A DNA stretch of 20,222 bases. Origin: a candidate division FCPU426 bacterium. Its GTDB lineage: Bacteria > Oederibacteriota > Muellerivitia > Muellerivitales > Muellerivitaceae. Every line of letters begins with the position of its first letter. The first letter of the stretch is position 1. The notes under the pieces were generated by a model. It saw only the letters and a program-made list of their open reading frames with translations, searched no databases and was not told the origin of the DNA. The translations under genes were made by a program, and so were the position numbers. Positions 6,679-20,042 of this stretch are shown here, piece by piece. The stretch is taken from assembly GCA_963738405.1 (NCBI GenBank), contig CAVTWJ010000015.1, positions 1-20,222 on the forward strand, in the 5' to 3' direction.

Positions 6679-7824
6679 TTATATCTTTTTGGAGTAGACC
6701 CTGTATTTCTTGATGATTTTACCGCCCATGGCGGCGATGCCACTGTTAATACCCTCGTTGTCCTCAAGTGTCCAGGAAAGCTCTCCCCCCTTGATTTTGC
6801 GCTTCTTTCCAGTTTTGAGGGCTTCCAGATAAAGAACGGCCTCCAACCCTTTTTTTCGGTAATCGGGATGGATTCCCATGGCCATCTCCCGGGTGTCGTT
6901 GATCTTTCCAATGTTTGTGAGGAAAGTGATGAGGGCAAAGGGGGTTTTCAAAGAAAAAAGTTCCCCATCCATCTTTTTCAGAACCTGATTGACGTCTGGG
7001 ACCACCAGGTTAAAGCCGATGGCTTTATCATCCACTTCCGCGAAAACCACGAAATCGGGCCAGACGATGTCCTTTAGCTTATTGACCTGGTACTTGAACT
7101 CCGCATCGGTCATAGGCACAAAGCCCCAGTTTTTTTCCCAGATCTTGTTGTAAAGATCCTGAAGCACCTTCGCGTCCTCATAGAGCCGTTTCATGTTGAG
7201 AGGGCGGATGGTGATCCTTTCCCGCTTCTTGGTGCGCTCTGCGATTTTAACAATGCGTTCGGGGAGGTCAATTTCCGCCGAAAGATACCAGGCGTAGAGG
7301 TCCTTGGCCTTGGTATAGCCCGCTTTTTCAGCCAGAGGGAGGTAATAGGGCGGATTGTAGGTCATAGCGATGCGGGCGGGGGAATCGTAGCCTTCCAAAA
7401 GGAACCCGAAATAATCGTCATTGGAGGTAAAGCTGGCCGGCCCCCGTACTTCGCTGACGCCTTGGGATTTGAAAAACTTTTCCCCTTCCTGGAAGAGGGC
7501 GTTCGCCACGGCCTGGTCGTTGACGCATTCAAACCAGCCGAAAAAACCGACCTTCTCGTTCCAGAATTTATTGAAATTATCGTCCACGCTGGCGGAGATG
7601 CGGCCGACCAACTCGTTTTGATCGTTGAATGCCATGAAGAGTTGGGAGCGACTGTGCTGGTGATAAGGGTTTTTTTGCGGGTTCAGCAGGCTGCGCTGGT
7701 CATCCAAAAAGGGAGGGACCCAGTTCGGATCGCGTTGACCGCCGGGGGCGTAAATTTTCCAGGGCAAATGAAGGAAAATTTCGATTTCCTGTTTGGTGAC
7801 TGCGGTTTTAATCGTGATGCCCAA
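6679..7824 (-). CDS. GNAT-fold N-acyltransferase, bacterial ceramide synthase (bCerS)/YghO-like
   Basis: Family motifs 'F..LPW.IY...DPNWVPP....L.P.KNP', 'GRISA', 'GFFGWFE', 'RGP', 'G.L.EG', 'M.YNPPYY', 'W..NWGFVPMT..EF', 'PD.NQ', 'G..P.YR.KG', 'E.SW.LEDN', 'K.YR.Y'. TTG start with AAGGGGG RBS; immediately downstream of the spt-like gene. Confidence 0.8.
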   Translation of the reverse strand: MGITIKTAVTKQEIEIFLHLPWKIYAPGGQRDPNWVPPFLDDQRSLLNPQKNPYHQHSRSQLFMAFNDQNELVGRISASVDDNFNKFWNEKVGFFGWFECVNDQAVANALFQEGEKFFKSQGVSEVRGPASFTSNDDYFGFLLEGYDSPARIAMTYNPPYYLPLAEKAGYTKAKDLYAWYLSAEIDLPERIVKIAERTKKRERITIRPLNMKRLYEDAKVLQDLYNKIWEKNWGFVPMTDAEFKYQVNKLKDIVWPDFVVFAEVDDKAIGFNLVVPDVNQVLKKMDGELFSLKTPFALITFLTNIGKINDTREMAMGIHPDYRKKGLEAVLYLEALKTGKKRKIKGGELSWTLEDNEGINSGIAAMGGKIIKKYRVYSKKI

Positions 7825-7937
7825 GGTATCCCCCTTGAATAGAAAAGGTGATTCAAATAAGGCAAGATTTTATAGTTTTTAAGAGGAGGAGGACAAGTTT
7901 TTATGGAGCCGGGAAAGGGAATTAACCTTCTTGGAAC

Positions 7938-9122
7938 CTATCCGTGGATAACCCCGAACTTTTTGCCCACTTTTCGGAAGCTGTCGAGCACATGGCTTAA
8001 CTGGCCATCCGTGTGGGTGGCGGTATAGGAGGTGCGAATGAGGGTTTGATCCGGCGGCACGGCTGGCGCGACCACGGGCGTGACAAAAACGCCCATTTCG
8101 CCCAGTTCTTTGGTCATGGCGAAGGTTTTTAGGTTGTCGCCCACCATGAGGGGAATGATGGCGGAGTTGGTGTTGAGGGTGTTCCATCCCATGGTCTTGA
8201 ATTCCTCCCTCATGCGTTTGACGATGACCCAAAGGCGTTCCCGGCGTTCCGGCTCGCGTTTGATGATCTCGAGGCTTTTTAAAACCGCGGCGGTATCGGC
8301 GGGGGAAAGACTGGCGGAAAAAATAAGGGGACGGCTGTTGTGGCGCAAATAGTCGATGACTTTATGGGTGGAGGCGATAAAGCCGCCAATGGAGACGAAT
8401 GATTTGGAAAAGGTGCCCATAATCATATCCACGTCTTTTTGAACCCCGAAATGGGCGCCTGTACCCTCGCCGTTGGGCCCCAGGACACCTATGGAATGGG
8501 CCTCGTCCACCATTAATCGGGCTCCGTATTTGTTCTTCAGTTCGACAATTTTGGGCAGGTTACAAACATCCCCGCCCATGGAAAAGACCCCGTCGGTCAC
8601 GATCAGTTTGGGGGCATCGGCATGATTGGACAGGACACGCTCCAAATCTTCCATGTCGCTATGGCCGTATTTGACCGTCTTGGCGAAGGAAAGCTTTTGG
8701 CCGTCCACGATGGAGGCATGGTTGTCCCGATCAGAAATGATATAGTCCCCCCGAGTGGCGATGGTGGAAAGGGCCCCCAGGTTGGCCAAAAAGCCAGCGG
8801 AATAGACCAGAGCGGATTCCATATGAACGTAATCGGCCAGTTTTTCTTCCAACTCCACGCGGATATCCAGGGTTCCGTTCAGGAAAGGTGAGCCAGTGCA
8901 GGCCGAACCGTATTTGCGGACGGCTTGGACCATGGCTTCCAAGACCTCAGGATGGGTAACGAGCCCCAGGTAGTTGTTGGAGCCCACCATGATCATTTTT
9001 TTGCCCCCGATGGTGACTTCGGTGCCCATTTGGGATGTATTGGGACGGAAATAGGGATAAAGACCCGCATTTCGAACATCGTCCGCCGCAGTCCAAATGT
9101 TAGCCTTTTCAAAAATATCCAT
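7938..9122 (-). CDS. spt: PLP-dependent alpha-oxoamine synthase, most similar to bacterial serine palmitoyltransferase
   Basis: 'GLYPYFR', 'GSNNYLGL', 'GS.CTGS.FLNGTLD', 'D..NHASIVDG..LS', 'DGVFSM.GD', 'VDEAHS.G..G', PLP-lysine motif 'MGTFSKS', 'IFSASL'. The N-terminal YPYFR and the GTFSKS motif match Bacteroidota-type SPT better than BioF or KBL. Confidence 0.82.
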   Translation of the reverse strand: MDIFEKANIWTAADDVRNAGLYPYFRPNTSQMGTEVTIGGKKMIMVGSNNYLGLVTHPEVLEAMVQAVRKYGSACTGSPFLNGTLDIRVELEEKLADYVHMESALVYSAGFLANLGALSTIATRGDYIISDRDNHASIVDGQKLSFAKTVKYGHSDMEDLERVLSNHADAPKLIVTDGVFSMGGDVCNLPKIVELKNKYGARLMVDEAHSIGVLGPNGEGTGAHFGVQKDVDMIMGTFSKSFVSIGGFIASTHKVIDYLRHNSRPLIFSASLSPADTAAVLKSLEIIKREPERRERLWVIVKRMREEFKTMGWNTLNTNSAIIPLMVGDNLKTFAMTKELGEMGVFVTPVVAPAVPPDQTLIRTSYTATHTDGQLSHVLDSFRKVGKKFGVIHG

Positions 9123-9242
9123 GGTTCCTCTTGTGATCAGGGTTGGTTCGGTTGTTTATCTATTTTCATTTTCCGGCTTGCCCTTGGGGCGAATCCAGAA
9201 CCGATCGGTAGGCCGAATTTCACGTAAATACATGTCGAAAGG

Positions 9243-9291
9243 TTGTTGCCAGAAGCGGGTGCATTATAATGGTGCCCGCTTGGCAGTTCAA
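9243..9291. promoter_or_regulatory. Divergent sigma70-type promoter region with overlapping -10 boxes
   Basis: ATTATAAT (9263-9270) gives TATAAT on both strands. Minus strand: TTGAAC (9291-9286)-17 bp-TATAAT (9268-9263), toward spt. Plus strand: TTGTTG (9243-9248)-16 bp-TATAAT (9265-9270), toward the SDR gene; this one is weaker. Confidence 0.6.
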
Positions 9292-9318
9292 ACTTTTTGA
9301 CCCCCTTCCAGGAACAAC

Positions 9319-10311
9319 ATGAAATATTCATCCCCAGTTTTGGTCACCGGCGCCAGCGGTTTTGTGGGAAGCCATTTGGTGGAAAAACTGGCTCAGAACA
9401 AGGTTCGAGTCCATTTGCTGGTCCGCAAGACGAGTAAAATACCCTTTAAACCGGGGCCCCTGATGCGATTGTGTTATGGGGATGTGACGGACCTAGATTC
9501 GGTGAAAGCCGCCGCAAAGGGCGTCAAAGTTATTTATCATCTTGCCGGAATTCTTCGAGGGTCGAGCTTTCAGAAATTAAACGAGGTCAACGCAGAGGGG
9601 ACCCGAAATGTCTGCGAGGCGGCCTTGGGGGTGAAGGGCCTCGAAAGGCTTGTTTATGTCAGCTCGTTATCGGCGGCGGGACCCAGCCGGGATGGGAAAC
9701 CCTTGAAAGAAAGTTTGCCTTGTCAGCCGGTTTCGCTTTATGGTGAGACGAAACTGAAGGGTGAAGAAATCGCATTGGCCTACCGAAAAAAACTGCCGGT
9801 TACGGTTTTAAGACCCGGCGCCGTTTATGGGCCGCGCGAGACGGACATATTGGCGTACTTTAAAATGGTCAGGGACGGTTGGGTTCTCGTTCCGAGCTTA
9901 AAACAGAAAGTCAGTTTTGTTTATGTGGAGGATCTGGTAAATGCCATTCTCCTGGCCGGGCAATCGGCCAAGGCCATCGGACAAATTTATTTTGTCTCAG
10001 ACGGAGAAACTTTCACCTGGCAAGAATTAACCGAAAGAATTGGAAAGACGACGAACCGAACCTTTAAGACCCTGGCCATTCCCATGGGAATGGTAAAAGT
10101 CGTCGCGCACTTGGGAGAACTGGCTGAAAAAATAAGCGGGAAAGCGTCTATGCTCAATGTCGACAAGGTGAAGGAAGCTTTTTATACCGATTGGACCTGT
10201 GACAACGGAAAGATTCGTTCCCAACTCGGGTTCAAACCGGCCTGGGACATTGAAAAGGGAGTAGGGGATACAGCCGCTTTTTATCTTAAAGAGGGTTGGA
10301 TCAAAAATTAA
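9319..10311 (+). CDS. NAD-dependent epimerase/dehydratase (extended SDR), candidate ceramide/3-oxo-sphingolipid reductase (CerR-like)
   Basis: Rossmann 'VLVTGASGFVG', 'YHLAG', 'VNAEGT.N', 'VSSLSA', catalytic 'YGETK' (YxxxK), 'RPGAVYGP'. The specific function is inferred from adjacency to the spt and bCerS-like genes. Confidence 0.85.
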   Translation: MKYSSPVLVTGASGFVGSHLVEKLAQNKVRVHLLVRKTSKIPFKPGPLMRLCYGDVTDLDSVKAAAKGVKVIYHLAGILRGSSFQKLNEVNAEGTRNVCEAALGVKGLERLVYVSSLSAAGPSRDGKPLKESLPCQPVSLYGETKLKGEEIALAYRKKLPVTVLRPGAVYGPRETDILAYFKMVRDGWVLVPSLKQKVSFVYVEDLVNAILLAGQSAKAIGQIYFVSDGETFTWQELTERIGKTTNRTFKTLAIPMGMVKVVAHLGELAEKISGKASMLNVDKVKEAFYTDWTCDNGKIRSQLGFKPAWDIEKGVGDTAAFYLKEGWIKN

Positions 10312-10344
10312 TGAAGCAAGAGGCTAAACCCATTGGAGGAGCGC

Positions 10345-11418
10345 ATGTCTAATTGTATGAAAGGTCTGATCATTTTGGCGGTTTTGACGTGGATCGGTAT
10401 GCCGGGCCGGAGTTTGGCGCAGGATTCACTGACGGATTCAGTTCTTCCGAAGGATCATTTACTCGAGAATTTTCCGTGGTTATCTGATGATGGAAAGATC
10501 GAAAGCAAGGGGCTTTTTGATTTTGAGGATGTAAGGGGACTGAATCAGCGTGATTTAGTTTTGATTTACCGGCAGACGGTTCCGGTAAGCGATCTGGATA
10601 AACCCCATAGTCAAACCTTAGCCGTTTGCTTCTACGACCCAACCCAAAAGAAATATGTGAAGAATTTCACGGATGACGGCGGACCTATCCTATGGGTCAA
10701 GATTTTTACGGACAGTGAAAAACGCCATGTTTTTCTAACTTATCAACGGGATGACTTAAAAGGAAACCAGGTTATTCGGACCTATACCTATTTGGCTGGT
10801 GCGCTCAAACCGGTGCTGGAAGTTTCATCACCCCAGCTTTATGCCAACGTCAATCCTAACGATCCAAAGGCCGAAATCCTTTGCTCCGCCAAAGCAACAC
10901 CCAAGGATCACGCGACCGCCGATCATATTTTCGATTGGGACGAAACCCAGTCGCAATTCACGGATCAAATCGTGGTTCAAAGCGCTGGTGGTTGGTCGGG
11001 AAGCTCCCTCCGGGTCGCCACACCCCTTCCCACTGCGGCCCCGGTGGTTGCCGCGGCCTCTTCCACACCGGTGGTCGTAGCGGCGGTTTCGAAGAAATCA
11101 GCCAATGGCTGGTGGGACGAACCTTTGAACGCCCAGGCGTCTCTTGTGGAGCTGAAAACTGAAATAGTTCCTGATCTCATTGGAAAGAATAAGATTATCC
11201 AATTGGGTCAGGAAGCCAGTTCTTTCTTTCAGGAAGTCCACAAAAGCGGAGTTGGAGGAAAGGATTTCGCCTCCATGCGCGCCACTTATTACGCGGCAGT
11301 GGCACAGGCGCTTTTAGACAAGGGGGCGAAAAAAGATTCGGCCTTTTATTTGAAGACCGCCCTGACCTTCCAAGGCGATAACCCGGACGCTTTGGCAGTA
11401 CAGGCTAAGATGAAATAG
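10345..11418 (+). CDS. Secreted hypothetical protein: signal peptide, N-terminal beta-rich domain, A/P/T/V linker, C-terminal helical TPR-like segment
   Basis: GGAGGA RBS (10335-10340) before ATG 10345 (alternative ATG 10357); 'MKGLIILAVLTWIGMPGRSLA|QD'; C-terminus 'YYAAVAQALLDKG....AFYLKTALTFQGDNPDA'. Confidence 0.75.
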   Translation: MSNCMKGLIILAVLTWIGMPGRSLAQDSLTDSVLPKDHLLENFPWLSDDGKIESKGLFDFEDVRGLNQRDLVLIYRQTVPVSDLDKPHSQTLAVCFYDPTQKKYVKNFTDDGGPILWVKIFTDSEKRHVFLTYQRDDLKGNQVIRTYTYLAGALKPVLEVSSPQLYANVNPNDPKAEILCSAKATPKDHATADHIFDWDETQSQFTDQIVVQSAGGWSGSSLRVATPLPTAAPVVAAASSTPVVVAAVSKKSANGWWDEPLNAQASLVELKTEIVPDLIGKNKIIQLGQEASSFFQEVHKSGVGGKDFASMRATYYAAVAQALLDKGAKKDSAFYLKTALTFQGDNPDALAVQAKMK

Positions 11419-11496: not shown

Positions 11497-11580
11497 TGGT
11501 GCCCGAGGCGGGACTCGAACCCGCACGGGTTTCCCCATACGCACCTCAAGCGTACGTGTCTGCCATTTCACCACCCGGGC
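11497..11580 (-). tRNA. tRNA-Leu (anticodon GAG), CCA encoded
   Basis: Reverse complement GCCCGGGTGGTGAAATGGCAGACACGTACGCTTGAGGTGCGTATGGGGAAACCCGTGCGGGTTCGAGTCCCGCCTCGGGCACCA: acceptor stem, anticodon stem TACGC/GCGTA with loop TTGAGGT, long variable arm, GTTCGAG T-loop, discriminator A. Confidence 0.98.
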
Positions 11581-11684: not shown

Positions 11685-13844
11685 TTGACCCAAACCATTA
11701 TTTCTTCCTTCTTTTTCCTCCTCTCTCTTCTAGGAACCAAGTTCTCTTTTTTGCATCCATCCTTACGGGCACTGACCGATACCTTGTGGAACGCAAGTCT
11801 CGCGGGCGGAACTTGGAGTCAAAGGTTTCCGGCACTTCTGATGTGTGTCCCCATTTTGTTGGGATGGTTAGGTTGGGCGGAAATGCTTTCGAGATTATTT
11901 TTATCGAAATTTGACAAGAAATTACGGAGCCCCTTTGTTTACGCTTCGGTCTTGTGCTTTTTTTCCTGCTATTGTTTTGGCTGGTCGGTTAATGAGCTTC
12001 TTTCTCCCTACAGTGCGGTTTCCTTCTTTCTGCCCTTCGTTCCCCAAGGCTTTTTAAGCCTCATTTCCCGTTTGGAAAAAGGGACACTACCTTCTTTAAA
12101 CCCATGGCTATTCGGAATAGGAATTCTTGCTCTTGTGGTTTGGGTCTCGGATTTATTGTCTCCGCCATTGATTTGGGACGCGGTTTTAGATCATTTCAGA
12201 TTTGCCGAGGAAGTAGCCCGGCAGGGGGAAGTCCCCTTTCGTTGGACGAATCATACGGGGGACATGCCCAAATTCACCGAAATGATTTGGGCGGGTTTTT
12301 GGGCCATGGGGGGCGAGTTTTTATCGAAGGCATCCATGGGCATCTCGATCTTTCTGACGCTTTGGATTTTAATGGCTTACCCACGCTCCAAAGGAATGCC
12401 CGGATTCGTGGGGCCCCTTTTGTTTTTAACGGGACCCTATTTTTTAGCCCTCTTTACCTGGGGATATGTTGAAGGGCATTTGGCCTTGTTCGAATGTCTG
12501 TCCGTGATAGGTTTTTTGGAGTTTTACGAAAACCCTAAGAGAAAATCTTGGTTGTTGATTTCCTTGTTTTTTATGGGCGCAGCGGTTGGAACCAAATACA
12601 CCGCATTCATGATGATCTTAGGAATTTTTTTATTGTCCCTTCTTTTAGACTACGGCAGGTATAGGCTGAGTTTGAATGGAAAAGGGATATTTCTTCTGGC
12701 TTTTTTTCTTTGTCCCTTGCCCTGGTATTTGCGAAACGAATTGGCCAACGGGAACCCCTTTTATCCCTTGTTGACGGGTCTTCTGGGAGGCCCCCCTGGA
12801 TTTGATTCCGGCATGGAAACAGCCCTTTGGACTGATACAGGAAGAGTTTTTGGAATAAAAATTTTAGATTTATTACTTCGTTACTGGCATGCTTTTTTTA
12901 CAGTGGATAACGGAATCGGGGCTTTTTGGCCTCCCCTCGTGTTCATGTCCTTGCCTTGGGTTTGGAAAGGGCTGGTAGAGAAAAGTTTTCAACGACTGTT
13001 GATTTTTTGCGGTATTTTTTTGGTGACATGGGGTTTCCTCTGCACAAACCTGCGCCACGCCTCTGGAGGGTGCATAGCCTTGGTGCTGACTGCGTCCTTT
13101 TTGTGGGGGAAGGCCCTGCAGGGAGGAAAAATCCAAAAGGGTCTATTTATTTCAGCCGCTTTCTTTTCATTAGGGATGACCCTTTTAGCACAAATCCAAA
13201 CAACCGCTCCTTACGCATCCGCCATGGGTATGGAAGATCCATTGATGCGCTTGAAGCGAAATTACTCTTTTGATTTCGACACCTATCGCGCTTACCAAGC
13301 CATTGAAAATTTTTCTATCCCCCGGGATAAGGTTTTGGCTTTCGGTGTTTTCCAGACCTACCCCTTGCGCAGGACTTCCTATGTTGATTTTTTTTGGAAA
13401 AAACCCTTTCTTCTTAAGTGGGCTTCCACTTGTTCCGTGGCCTCCGATTTAGCCTTGAAACTAAAAGAGGAAGGCGCCACGTACATTCTTTATCAAAGGA
13501 AAGAGGCGGTCGCCATGTCCGGAAAGGAGAAAGATTTTGTTTTGACAGGCATGCCTGAAAAACAATATGTTGAATTTTGGGAATATTACGCAAAACTCGT
13601 TATAACCTTTGGGAATTGTTCGGTTTATCAAGTTTTGGATACACCCTCTCGAACCGCTTTTAAACTTAATGATTTGCCTGGACTGCAAGAAAACCTGATC
13701 CGTTTGATTCAATCGAATCCGGGTAAAGGTTGGATCGAAACAAGAGCTTTTTTAAAGCGTTATCCCGCTTGGCATTTGGGTTATGAATTAGAAAAAAGTT
13801 TTTCTAGGGAGAGTGTCAAAGGGAAGCGGTTTTCGATAAACTAA
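11685..13844 (+). CDS. Multi-pass membrane protein, probable GT-C-fold (ArnT/PMT-like) glycosyltransferase
   Basis: Many hydrophobic segments; first-loop 'PPLIWDAVLDH', 'GTKYT', 'PWYLRN....GNPFYP'; soluble C-terminal domain 'LKEEGATYIL'. The start codon is uncertain. Confidence 0.65.
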   Translation: MTQTIISSFFFLLSLLGTKFSFLHPSLRALTDTLWNASLAGGTWSQRFPALLMCVPILLGWLGWAEMLSRLFLSKFDKKLRSPFVYASVLCFFSCYCFGWSVNELLSPYSAVSFFLPFVPQGFLSLISRLEKGTLPSLNPWLFGIGILALVVWVSDLLSPPLIWDAVLDHFRFAEEVARQGEVPFRWTNHTGDMPKFTEMIWAGFWAMGGEFLSKASMGISIFLTLWILMAYPRSKGMPGFVGPLLFLTGPYFLALFTWGYVEGHLALFECLSVIGFLEFYENPKRKSWLLISLFFMGAAVGTKYTAFMMILGIFLLSLLLDYGRYRLSLNGKGIFLLAFFLCPLPWYLRNELANGNPFYPLLTGLLGGPPGFDSGMETALWTDTGRVFGIKILDLLLRYWHAFFTVDNGIGAFWPPLVFMSLPWVWKGLVEKSFQRLLIFCGIFLVTWGFLCTNLRHASGGCIALVLTASFLWGKALQGGKIQKGLFISAAFFSLGMTLLAQIQTTAPYASAMGMEDPLMRLKRNYSFDFDTYRAYQAIENFSIPRDKVLAFGVFQTYPLRRTSYVDFFWKKPFLLKWASTCSVASDLALKLKEEGATYILYQRKEAVAMSGKEKDFVLTGMPEKQYVEFWEYYAKLVITFGNCSVYQVLDTPSRTAFKLNDLPGLQENLIRLIQSNPGKGWIETRAFLKRYPAWHLGYELEKSFSRESVKGKRFSIN

Positions 13845-14259: not shown

Positions 14260-15579
14260 TTATTTTTGGGAGTATAGAAGCGGATTGGGTGTTAGGACGC
14301 ACTCGGTTGCAATGCGAAGATTCTTTATTTTCCTCGTGTGCCTCAGCTCGTAAAGACGGGGAACAACCATATCACGTAGAGCAACCGGGGATATGGGGTT
14401 GATATAGATTTTGGTTCCGCCCTCAAAACCCGCTTGATTGACGGTTCTCCATTTGATCAGTATGTGCCAAGGCATCACATCCACCGCGTCCCTGGGTGAG
14501 TAATACCATTCCTCATTGCATGGGATTTGGCTTCCCATGGCGGCATGGCAGGCATGGACCAAATCGGAGAATCCTCTCAACTCCTCTTGGGTATGGTCTT
14601 CGGGTCTGGCATTTTTGCTTTTGGAATAGACCGCCAGTGTGGGATAACGGTGGCCCAATTCGGCTAAGGCGATGGCATGGTCGTTTTCAGCGAAAATGAG
14701 ATTATGCTGGATTGAAAAATTAATGATGGCTTCGTTATAGATGTTTGGGCGTTCATGGGCGATTTCGACCTCGGCTTGAATGGAGGTGCCCCATTCGTCC
14801 AAACCCACTAATTGTTTATGAAGATGGTCGAGTGAGGCGCCGGCGGGTTGCAGCCAATTTTGAAAAATGGTTACGTAACGGATATGCGGATTATGTTGGT
14901 AGATGTCCATCAATGCTTCAATTGTAAATTTCATGAACCGAAAATGCTCTTCGTCTGACATTTCACCGGAGGAATAGAATTCGTTATCAACGGTAGCCCC
15001 AGGCTTGAAATGACGGCCCGCAATGATGAGTTCGTGGGCACCTCCAAAAAAAGAAGCGGATAATCTCCTCATTTCTTCTGGCGGAATGGATTCGATTTCC
15101 TCGGGCGTTTTTCCCACCAACCGGAGTTTCGTTTGAATGATTTTCAAGACGTGTTCCCACCCTCTGGGATTATCCAAATAGTTTTGCATCCAATGGGATT
15201 GGGAACTCGATAGGTTGAAGCCGTGATTCTTAACCCAATAATCGATGGTTACGATTTCAAAAAGGTTAGCTACCCTGCGGAAAATTGACTTTGTGGAGTC
15301 AATCATGTCGGGATTGACCTTATCGAGCCTCTGGAAATGCCCATCCCAATTTTGGATTAAACGTGATTTTTCTGGCGGGGTTAAAAAATAATTGGAGGAA
15401 CAAAAGTCGCAGTAATTTTCCTTGGAAAGCGGCTCAATGGATTTAGGGGGGGGGGAGGACCGATTCGAGGGTCGGTGAGCCCGGTCGGGCACAGTCCAAA
15501 CCTCCGTGCCGGTAAGGGGATTGATGTGTTTTAAGGTTCCATCCGGCATGGATAGGTAAAGATTTTCAAACTTTCTCAT
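14260..15579 (-). CDS. DUF4921-family protein (GalT/HIT-like nucleotidyltransferase fold)
   Basis: 'MPDGTLKHINPLTGTEVWTVP.R.HRP', Zn-like 'CDFC', 'TPPEK.R', 'NLFEIV', 'FQNWL.PAGASLDHLHKQL' (GalT-like HxHxQ), 'AGFEGGTKIYIN'. Confidence 0.85.
   Translation of the reverse strand: MRKFENLYLSMPDGTLKHINPLTGTEVWTVPDRAHRPSNRSSPPPKSIEPLSKENYCDFCSSNYFLTPPEKSRLIQNWDGHFQRLDKVNPDMIDSTKSIFRRVANLFEIVTIDYWVKNHGFNLSSSQSHWMQNYLDNPRGWEHVLKIIQTKLRLVGKTPEEIESIPPEEMRRLSASFFGGAHELIIAGRHFKPGATVDNEFYSSGEMSDEEHFRFMKFTIEALMDIYQHNPHIRYVTIFQNWLQPAGASLDHLHKQLVGLDEWGTSIQAEVEIAHERPNIYNEAIINFSIQHNLIFAENDHAIALAELGHRYPTLAVYSKSKNARPEDHTQEELRGFSDLVHACHAAMGSQIPCNEEWYYSPRDAVDVMPWHILIKWRTVNQAGFEGGTKIYINPISPVALRDMVVPRLYELRHTRKIKNLRIATECVLTPNPLLYSQK
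15446..15455. repeat. G10 homopolymer (C10 on the coding strand) near the 5' end of the DUF4921 gene
   Basis: atttaGGGGGGGGGGaggac; encodes S-P-P-P in the minus-strand frame. Confidence 0.9.
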
Positions 15580-18545: not shown

Positions 18546-20042
18546 ATGAAAACTTTTATAGTAAATCCACCAACCTGCAGTGGGATGAAATATATCCGCG
18601 AGGGGCGGTGTGAGCAACGGTTGAATTCTTTCCAATACGTCATGGTTCCAATATCGCTTCCAATGATCGCTGGTGCATTGGAAGCAAAAAAACATGAGGT
18701 GAAGCTTTTGGATTGCATCGCCAATGACGTGAATGTGGAGGGATTAAAAAAGTCTATACAGGAATTTAACCCGGGATTGATTATTTTCAACATGTCGACG
18801 GCGACATCATCCAGCGATGTTGAAGTCATCAATCTGATGAGGCCTTTATCCAAGGCCCATTTTTCTGTTATCGGAAACCATGCAACATCTTTACCTGAAG
18901 AAGTCCTTTTGGCTTCGGAACTGGATTCGGTTATTCGCCGGGAACCTGAATTGACGGCGCAAGACCTAGTGGATGCTGTTGAGAAGGGGAGGGGCCTGGG
19001 AGAAGTTCTGGGAATCTCTTTTAAAGACAAAGACGGGACGGTGGTAAACAATGAGGATCGGCCGTTCAATGAAAATTTAGATGATTTGCCTTTTGCTGCC
19101 AGGCATCTTTTGGATAACGCTCGATACACCCTGCCGGTGATCAATGAACCCTATACTCTAATCATTACAAGCCGCGGATGCCCATATTCCTGCATTTACT
19201 GTACCGCCCATCAGTATTACGGAAAAAAACTCAGGCTCCGGAGTGCTGAAAACGTTGTTGATGAAATGCAGGAATGTTTAGAAAAATATCATATTCGCAA
19301 TTTTACGATGTGGTCGGATACCTTCAATCAAAACAAAAAGTTTGTTATGGAAGTTTGTTCGGAGATAAAAAAACGTGGATTGGACCAAAAAATCCGTTGG
19401 ATGGCAAATAGTAGAGTTGATCATGTTGATTCGGAAGTTTTGTCCGAAATGAAATCTTCTGGATGTATCGGAGTTTCTTATGGGGTGGAGTCGGGAGTTG
19501 ATGAGATTTTAAACAACATGAAAAAGGGAGCTGATGCCCAGCAGGCAAGGGATGCTGTGCGTTTAACTAAACTGGCTGGGATTGAGGTGTTAACTCACAT
19601 CATTTTTGGTTTGCCGGGGGAAACCCCAGAAACGATTGCCCAAACGATTAAATATGTAAAAGAAATGGATCCTGATTACGCCCAGTTTTATTGCGCGATT
19701 CCTTTCCCTAAAACAGAATTGGAAGAGATGGGCAAAAAAAATGGATGGATCACGACGGAAGATTATGCCAAATACGAGCTTAACCAACCCATATTGAATT
19801 TGCCTACCCTATCTTCGGAACAGCTTCAAAAGGCAAGAATCAGAGCCTATCGGGAGTTTTATCTTCGGCCATCTTATATTTATAAAAGATTGAAAAAAAT
19901 CCATAGCTGGAATGATCTAAAAAAGACCATTTATCAGGCTAAGGATTTTATTGGGAGTTGGATATCCGACGATTCCACAGAAAAAACTCCAATTTACAAG
20001 CCTTCAAAATTGTCGATGGCCACAGCCGAATACTTAAAATAA
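18546..20042 (+). CDS. B12-binding domain radical SAM protein (class B; BchE/HpnJ-like superfamily)
   Basis: N-terminal cobalamin-binding-like domain ('IREGRCEQ', 'P.SL..IA..L', 'GNHAT.LPEE', 'REPE'); 'TSRGCPYSCIYC' (CxxxCxxC); 'RSAENVVDE', 'GVESG', 'IFGLPGET', 'IPFPKT'. GGGGAG RBS. Confidence 0.92.
   Translation: MKTFIVNPPTCSGMKYIREGRCEQRLNSFQYVMVPISLPMIAGALEAKKHEVKLLDCIANDVNVEGLKKSIQEFNPGLIIFNMSTATSSSDVEVINLMRPLSKAHFSVIGNHATSLPEEVLLASELDSVIRREPELTAQDLVDAVEKGRGLGEVLGISFKDKDGTVVNNEDRPFNENLDDLPFAARHLLDNARYTLPVINEPYTLIITSRGCPYSCIYCTAHQYYGKKLRLRSAENVVDEMQECLEKYHIRNFTMWSDTFNQNKKFVMEVCSEIKKRGLDQKIRWMANSRVDHVDSEVLSEMKSSGCIGVSYGVESGVDEILNNMKKGADAQQARDAVRLTKLAGIEVLTHIIFGLPGETPETIAQTIKYVKEMDPDYAQFYCAIPFPKTELEEMGKKNGWITTEDYAKYELNQPILNLPTLSSEQLQKARIRAYREFYLRPSYIYKRLKKIHSWNDLKKTIYQAKDFIGSWISDDSTEKTPIYKPSKLSMATAEYLK

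Follow-up and report, generated by a model that had tools for sequence, protein, structure and literature searches.

The window analysed here is a stretch of 20,222 nucleotides from a candidate division FCPU426 bacterium (contig CAVTWJ010000015.1 of assembly GCA_963738405.1; genome of 3.18 Mb in 23 contigs, 90.7% complete), and it contains three adjacent genes with the composition of a putative bacterial ceramide cluster. The first of them, spt, lies on the minus strand at 7938-9122, starts with ATG and encodes an alpha-oxoamine synthase (AOS) of 394 aa that resembles serine palmitoyltransferase (SPT, bacterial Spt). Downstream of it on the same strand, after a gap of 113 nt, follows a gene with a TTG start (6679-7824) for a bCerS-like N-acyltransferase of 381 aa with a tandem Gcn5-related N-acetyltransferase (GNAT) architecture. 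The third gene, at 9319-10311 on the plus strand, starts with ATG, encodes a CerR-like extended short-chain dehydrogenase/reductase (SDR) of 330 aa, and diverges from spt across 196 nt (9123-9318). An earlier note on this DNA had described three open reading frames (ORFs) at these positions, with spt and the GNAT gene co-oriented and the SDR gene divergent; the inspection of the sequence confirms this layout, and all three frames are intact. The 196-nt intergenic region presumably holds both promoters, and it is probable that spt and the GNAT gene are co-transcribed. A sigma-70-like site on the minus strand at 9291-9263 (TTGAAC and TATAAT separated by 17 nt; 10/12 matches) is a possible promoter and is taken only as a lead; the scan of the divergent region returned 5 sites, vs 4.1 expected in shuffled sequences.

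The motifs that the earlier note had named for the synthase and for the GNAT protein are present in the translations without exception. In the synthase, YPYFR occurs at residue 22, FLNGTLD at residue 80 and GTFSKS at residues 236-241; the last of these includes the lysine that binds pyridoxal 5'-phosphate (PLP) and aligns with the same motif in the SPT structure 3a2b. The Pfam family PF00155 is matched over residues 42-381 with 202 bits. Among the NCBIfam models the highest score is obtained for NF047600, SerpalmtaseCFB (524.1 bits), with lower values for TIGR01825, the BioF/Kbl subfamily (395), Kbl (392) and BioF (385). A similar ranking results from the comparison with solved structures, where the closest entry is the SPT of Sphingobacterium (3a2b/8guh, 420 bits over residues 5-388), followed by BioF/KBL (287), the Sphingomonas SPT (275) and cysteate-C-fatty acyltransferase (28eh, 261). 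Furthermore, the genome encodes a second oxoamine synthase, on contig C1, which exceeds the BioF cut-off (461.8 vs 426.45), and therefore the window gene is not the BioF of the cell.

The comparison of Spt with BioF/KBL by phylogeny, which the earlier note had proposed, leads to the same assignment. In a tree of 62 synthases, obtained by a quick IQ-TREE search with no mixture model and with HemA and CqsA left out, a branch with a support of 97 in the Shimodaira-Hasegawa-like approximate likelihood ratio test (SH-aLRT) separates 59 GNAT-linked synthases, including the window protein and the E. coli Spt (38% identical to it), from E. coli BioF, E. coli Kbl and the BioF of the genome itself. A BioF or Kbl identity of the synthase is thus rejected on the NCBIfam and PDB scores, the separate BioF and the tree. 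For the E. coli Spt, cloned from BL21(DE3), the formation of 3-oxo-sphinganine is reported in PMC9386255.

The GNAT protein contains DPNWVPP at residue 32, YNPPYY at residue 156 and NWGFVP at residue 232. No NCBIfam model is matched, and the only Pfam match is a weak one to PF00583; it covers residues 221-356, so that the recognisable acyl-CoA-binding motif of the GNAT family falls in the C-terminal half. A protein search of a plasmid collection identified E. coli YghO as a full-length homologue, with 32% identity over residues 1-381 (E 5e-60 in tblastn, 1e-70 in blastp); in the reverse search, the sole match of YghO in the genome of the window is the GNAT protein (E 2.6e-63). The legend of Fig. 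9 in PMC9386255 lists yghO/ECD_02850 together with CC_1154 as the N-acyltransferase (aca) and gives 'epi' as CC_1164 and ECD_02852, while PMC11324152 names CC_1154 cerS and CC_1164 cerR. The family is large: 5038 of the 8000 candidates scored match at E<=1e-5, with E values down to 1e-233, and in the genome contig collection it occurs in at least 579 species. The GNAT tree was rooted on a distant paralogue from Ensifer (26% identity) because this paralogue has no linkage to spt; in the tree, the window protein nests within the family together with YghO and with members from Sphingomonas, Streptomyces and Bacteroidota.

The AlphaFold model of the same protein displays a tandem GNAT fold (pLDDT 92.5, pTM 0.90). 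Its closest Foldseek matches are amine N-acyltransferases such as 5kf1, 7q3a and MshD (1ozp), with E values from 1e-10 to 2e-15, query-normalised TM scores of 0.57-0.62 and sequence identities of 10-17%. The modelled fold is consistent with a predicted acylation of an amine from acyl-CoA, and by fold-level analogy with these tandem-GNAT enzymes the window protein may N-acylate a long-chain base.

For the SDR, the motifs GASGFVG at residue 11 and YGETK at residue 141 (the catalytic YxxxK) are recognised, and PF01370 is matched with 144 bits; this match, like that of the synthase to PF00155 and the E values within the GNAT family, is too strong for a chance similarity. The reductase of the E. 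coli cluster, 'epi', has a single match in the genome of the window, and this match is the window SDR (25% identity, E 1.3e-27); the identity to the reductase of the Streptomyces cluster is 36%. In the SDR tree, the window protein groups with the cluster-linked reductases, and seven of the eight paralogues from the same genome fall opposite them. Because the support of the separating branch is only 81 and the eighth paralogue is poorly placed, the assignment of the SDR rests mainly on linkage, on the reciprocal match and on a GNAT-SDR gene fusion.

The association of the three genes is supported by the comparison of related loci. Eighty such loci were fetched, and 68 of them, with at least 1600 nt upstream of the GNAT gene, were informative with respect to spt. 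An spt gene scoring at least 300 bits is present in 47 of the 68 informative loci; in 45 it immediately precedes the GNAT gene in the same orientation. A homologous SDR gene adjoins the GNAT gene or spt in 38 of the 80 loci, and the exact layout of the window, a divergent SDR gene followed by spt-GNAT, is found in 26. The labels of these loci include Ignavibacteriota, Bacteroidota, Zixibacteria, Calditrichota, Gemmatimonadota, Elusimicrobiota, Myxococcota and others. The same trio occurs in annotated records of Streptomyces, Rubrobacter and Aureispira, and an SDR homologue is also part of the E. coli cluster. On a Sphingomonas plasmid (L087) and a Roseomonas plasmid (L181), the GNAT homologue adjoins paralogues of lptF/lptG and a fatty-acid or sterol-type desaturase; the Roseomonas homologue is annotated as a dATP pyrophosphohydrolase, probably wrongly.

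Gene fusions are also observed among the relatives. In a genome of the same phylum, Spt and the GNAT protein are encoded by a single ORF of 777 aa starting from ATG (locus L180, 9607-11940, minus strand; G018:C13), and in 5 of 99 genomes of the phylum both matches fall within one open frame of 797-810 aa (G018:C13, G040:C3, G042:C96, G049:C3 and G050:C1). Ten proteins combining an AOS domain (PF00155) with the GNAT were found among the longer proteins of a large protein collection. The protein P0184 (706 aa) joins the GNAT to an extended SDR, as confirmed by Pfam, and P0193 (794 aa) joins it to a ketosynthase. GNAT-type Pfam domains alone are present in 57 more proteins (P0125-P0181; 694-831 aa), some of them labelled Planctomycetota, which score far above single-copy members (432-536 bits) and are read as putative tandem doublets of the GNAT. 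As genomic evidence, the fusions among relatives modestly favour a view in which Spt and the acyltransferase act in direct succession.

The distribution within the phylum was evaluated in the same 99 genomes, with thresholds of E<=1e-30 for the GNAT and E<=1e-110 for the Spt-like match; as these genomes are related to one another, no statistic is attached to the counts. The GNAT is present in 60 genomes and an Spt-like match in 52, with both in 51, the GNAT only in nine, the Spt-like match only in one and neither gene in 38. In the family of the window, the 30 other genomes contain the GNAT in 29 cases and an Spt-like match in 28. The gene pair is thus near-universal in the family and patchy in the phylum as a whole, and it is fused in sister families. 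A more novel reading, considered less likely than not, is that the host phylum is absent from published lists of sphingolipid producers. In that case the phylum would offer a natural gradation, with separate genes, fused genes and gene loss, in which the adoption of sphingolipids by bacteria and its causes could be studied and the debated sequence of the pathway steps could be tested.

Collectively, sequence, trees, synteny, gene fusions and reciprocal matches support a functional reading in which the trio very probably encodes the known bacterial route to (dihydro)ceramide, namely Spt, a bCerS-like GNAT and a CerR-like SDR. According to PMC11334938, these three enzymes constitute the known bacterial ceramide pathway and their genes are often clustered. 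In the proposed mechanism, the PLP enzyme Spt would convert serine and a long-chain acyl thioester to 3-ketosphinganine, the tandem-GNAT protein would add a second acyl chain to the amine, and the extended SDR, transcribed divergently from the shared 196-nt region, would reduce the 3-keto group with NAD(P)H. The acyl thioester used by Spt is most likely acyl-CoA, because no dedicated acyl carrier protein (ACP) or acyl-ACP synthetase accompanies the genes: the earlier note had seen neither next to the trio, and neither is present in the window, in Pfam and NCBIfam scans of its proteins. In the whole genome, E. coli AcpR gives no tblastn match at E<1e-5, and E. coli AasR gives a single weak and generic one (24% identity, E 2e-11, contig C11). 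The description of a compact, ACP-independent ceramide cluster is therefore supported as a prediction from the genes. Homology, placement in the families, conservation of the linkage and natural fusions are shown by the data; we infer the substrates, the acyl donor, the order of the steps and the actual production of the lipid. Acylation is placed before reduction because this order was proposed for Caulobacter and is supported by knockouts in B. fragilis, where the mutant of the cerS homologue is reported to accumulate 3-ketosphinganine and that of the cerR homologue keto-dihydroceramide (bioRxiv 10.1101/2023.05.23.541633).

Several observations weigh against this assignment. The score of the window Spt, 524.1 bits, is lower than the curated cut-off of NF047600 (640), which is reached in none of the 99 genomes of the phylum; since the score is under the cut-off, the protein is filed as Spt-like and not as a member of the NF047600 equivalog. 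For the SDR, the identity to the E. coli reductase is only 25%, the top NCBIfam model is HpnA (128 bits vs a cut-off of 368), and in the SDR tree, besides the support of 81 for the separating branch, the long-branch paralogue L196 falls inside the poorly resolved part. Of the 68 informative loci, 21 yielded no spt next to the GNAT gene, nine genomes of the phylum contain the GNAT with no Spt-like match at E<=1e-110, and no head-group or transport gene was recognised in the window. Moreover, the link between the window proteins and the enzymes of Caulobacter and B. fragilis runs through E. coli YghO and 'epi' together with the published correspondences.

The alternative explanations concern the order of the steps, the substrate of the synthase and the identity of the reductase. 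The same three enzymes could operate in a eukaryote-like order, in which the SDR makes sphinganine first and the GNAT then N-acylates it, as proposed by Olea-Ozuna et al. (as quoted in PMC9386255 and PMC11324152). An N-terminal signal peptide is absent from the window SDR, in which the Rossmann motif already starts at residue 11, and therefore nothing forces it to act after export. The intermediates of the B. fragilis knockouts (bioRxiv 10.1101/2023.05.23.541633) argue for acylation first, and this eukaryote-like order is considered unlikely, although it is the most serious of the three alternatives. The Spt-GNAT fusions, which put the acyltransferase beside the enzyme releasing the keto intermediate, point in the same direction, but they do not settle the order of the steps, because the GNAT-SDR fusion P0184 exists too.

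An AOS together with an SDR is also the core of capnine synthesis, and the cluster could accordingly produce a related N-acyl amino-lipid other than a sphingolipid, with the synthase acting on cysteate (a sulfonolipid of the capnine/sulfobacin type) or on alanine or glycine (1-deoxy or other bases). The match to the cysteate-C-fatty acyltransferase 28eh and the score under the curated Spt cut-off are compatible with such a product, and both 1-deoxy- and sulfono-ceramides are reported to occur in nature (PMC11334938). Nevertheless, the SPT structure is matched at 420 bits, far above the 261 bits of the cysteate enzyme, the top NCBIfam model is an Spt model, and the window protein belongs to a clade with the E. 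coli Spt assayed in PMC9386255, so that a substrate other than serine appears improbable. Less probable still is an SDR that is an unrelated sugar epimerase or a hopanoid-associated, HpnA-like one, a mere neighbour of spt, with any keto reduction taking place elsewhere. Its top NCBIfam model, the support of 81 for the CerR-type clade and an HpnJ-like B12 radical-SAM gene in the same window (18546-20042; 272 bits, cut-off 578) could be read in this way, but both Hpn scores are far under their cut-offs and no squalene-hopene cyclase was found in the 90.7%-complete genome; on these grounds the HpnA identity was rejected. An SDR homologue also recurs next to the GNAT gene or spt in 38 of the 80 fetched loci, from many phyla, as well as in the clusters of Streptomyces, Rubrobacter, Aureispira and E. 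coli, and this argues against a chance neighbour, as do the fusion P0184 and the fact that the E. coli cluster reductase matches the window SDR alone in the genome.

With Spt, bCerS and CerR functions thus preferred for the three genes, the ceramide interpretation of the earlier note stands, whereas its suggestion that this may be sphingolipid synthesis in a lineage not known for it is not borne out in that form. Ding et al. 2024 (PMC11334938) report Spt-like proteins encoded by 1271 of 5069 Black Sea metagenome-assembled genomes, from 38 phyla, and a widening of the known phylum range from 9 to 40; the layout itself recurs in the 26 loci described above and on an Aureispira plasmid. The functional assignment holds but is not new: producers have already been predicted in dozens of phyla, and the cluster is an ordinary further example of the described three-enzyme route in an uncultured lineage. 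The find leaves the knowledge of the pathway itself unchanged. It adds one more uncultured lineage to the bacteria predicted to make ceramide-type membrane lipids, which is of use in reading environmental lipid biomarkers and in annotating similar genes labelled 'GNAT family N-acetyltransferase' and 'epimerase'.

Regarding the remaining genes of the window, a 361-aa protein is encoded on the same strand as the SDR, starting 21 nt past its stop (10333-11418, plus strand). Its N-terminus is hydrophobic and signal-peptide-like, and no Pfam family is matched even at E<=1. The gene is kept after the SDR gene in relatives of the same family, with 37-77% identity, and was not detected in one genome of the same order or in the other members of the phylum examined. 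A tRNA-Leu gene (anticodon GAG; 11497-11580, minus strand) lies between it and the gene of a PMT_2-like membrane protein (11685-13844), dividing the latter from the transcription unit of the SDR. The window further encodes a full-length DUF4921 protein (14260-15579, minus strand; 593 bits) and the B12-binding radical-SAM protein mentioned above, on the plus strand, whose closest model is HpnJ. The 361-aa secreted protein, the PMT_2-like protein and an 821-aa protein were considered as members of the cluster; no informative family was matched by any of them, and no support for their membership was found. The genes flanking the trio are collinear within the order only, where the entire region is collinear, and the other families of the phylum that were examined lack them next to the trio.

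Compared with known systems, the window encodes the same enzyme types as Caulobacter crescentus, namely an AOS, a GNAT of about 380 aa and an extended SDR, which in that organism are Spt (CC_1162/CCNA_01220), CerS/bCerS (CC_1154/CCNA_01212) and CerR (CC_1164/CCNA_01222). Caulobacter, as it is described in the literature, needs the dedicated proteins AcpR and AasR, and its genes are scattered across a locus of 15 genes that includes LptF/G paralogues; the trio of the window is accompanied by neither AcpR nor AasR, and its three genes adjoin. Furthermore, the window Spt is of the non-Rhodobacteria type in the AOS tree, unlike that of Caulobacter.

The E. coli B-type cluster is arranged as lptF-lptG / spt-acpR-epi-aasR / yghO (ECD_02850-02854 in BL21(DE3)). 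In the annotated sequence, yghO adjoins genes for a fatty acyl-AMP ligase, an epimerase-family SDR, an ACP and an aminotransferase, the last being spt in the RefSeq annotation, with the lptF/lptG paralogues next to them. This cluster differs from the window trio in its AcpR, AasR and Lpt paralogues, and its members branch apart from the window proteins in all three trees. Among 5426 complete E. coli genomes, the coverage of the spt...yghO cluster reaches 80% or more in 4068, a prevalence that matters for the choice of an expression host in work with sphingolipid genes.

At the level of the fold, the window GNAT shares the tandem-GNAT architecture with a glucosamine N-acetyltransferase (5kf1), MAB_4324 (7q3a) and the mycothiol synthase MshD (1ozp), which transfer acetyl groups to sugars or thiol conjugates and not long acyl chains to a lipid base. 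Among Bacteroidota, the characterised counterparts are the SPT of Sphingobacterium multivorum (3a2b, 8guh) and, in B. fragilis, CerS BF9343_4218 and CerR BF9343_4240. Among solved structures, the Sphingobacterium enzyme gives the best match to the window Spt, and among the NCBIfam models the CFB Spt model ranks first, yet the score remains under the cut-off of that model. In Bacteroidales the three genes are reported as unclustered (PMC11334938), unlike those of the window, while the plasmid of Aureispira, a cultured member of Bacteroidota, carries the SDR gene divergent from spt-GNAT in a layout identical to that described here.

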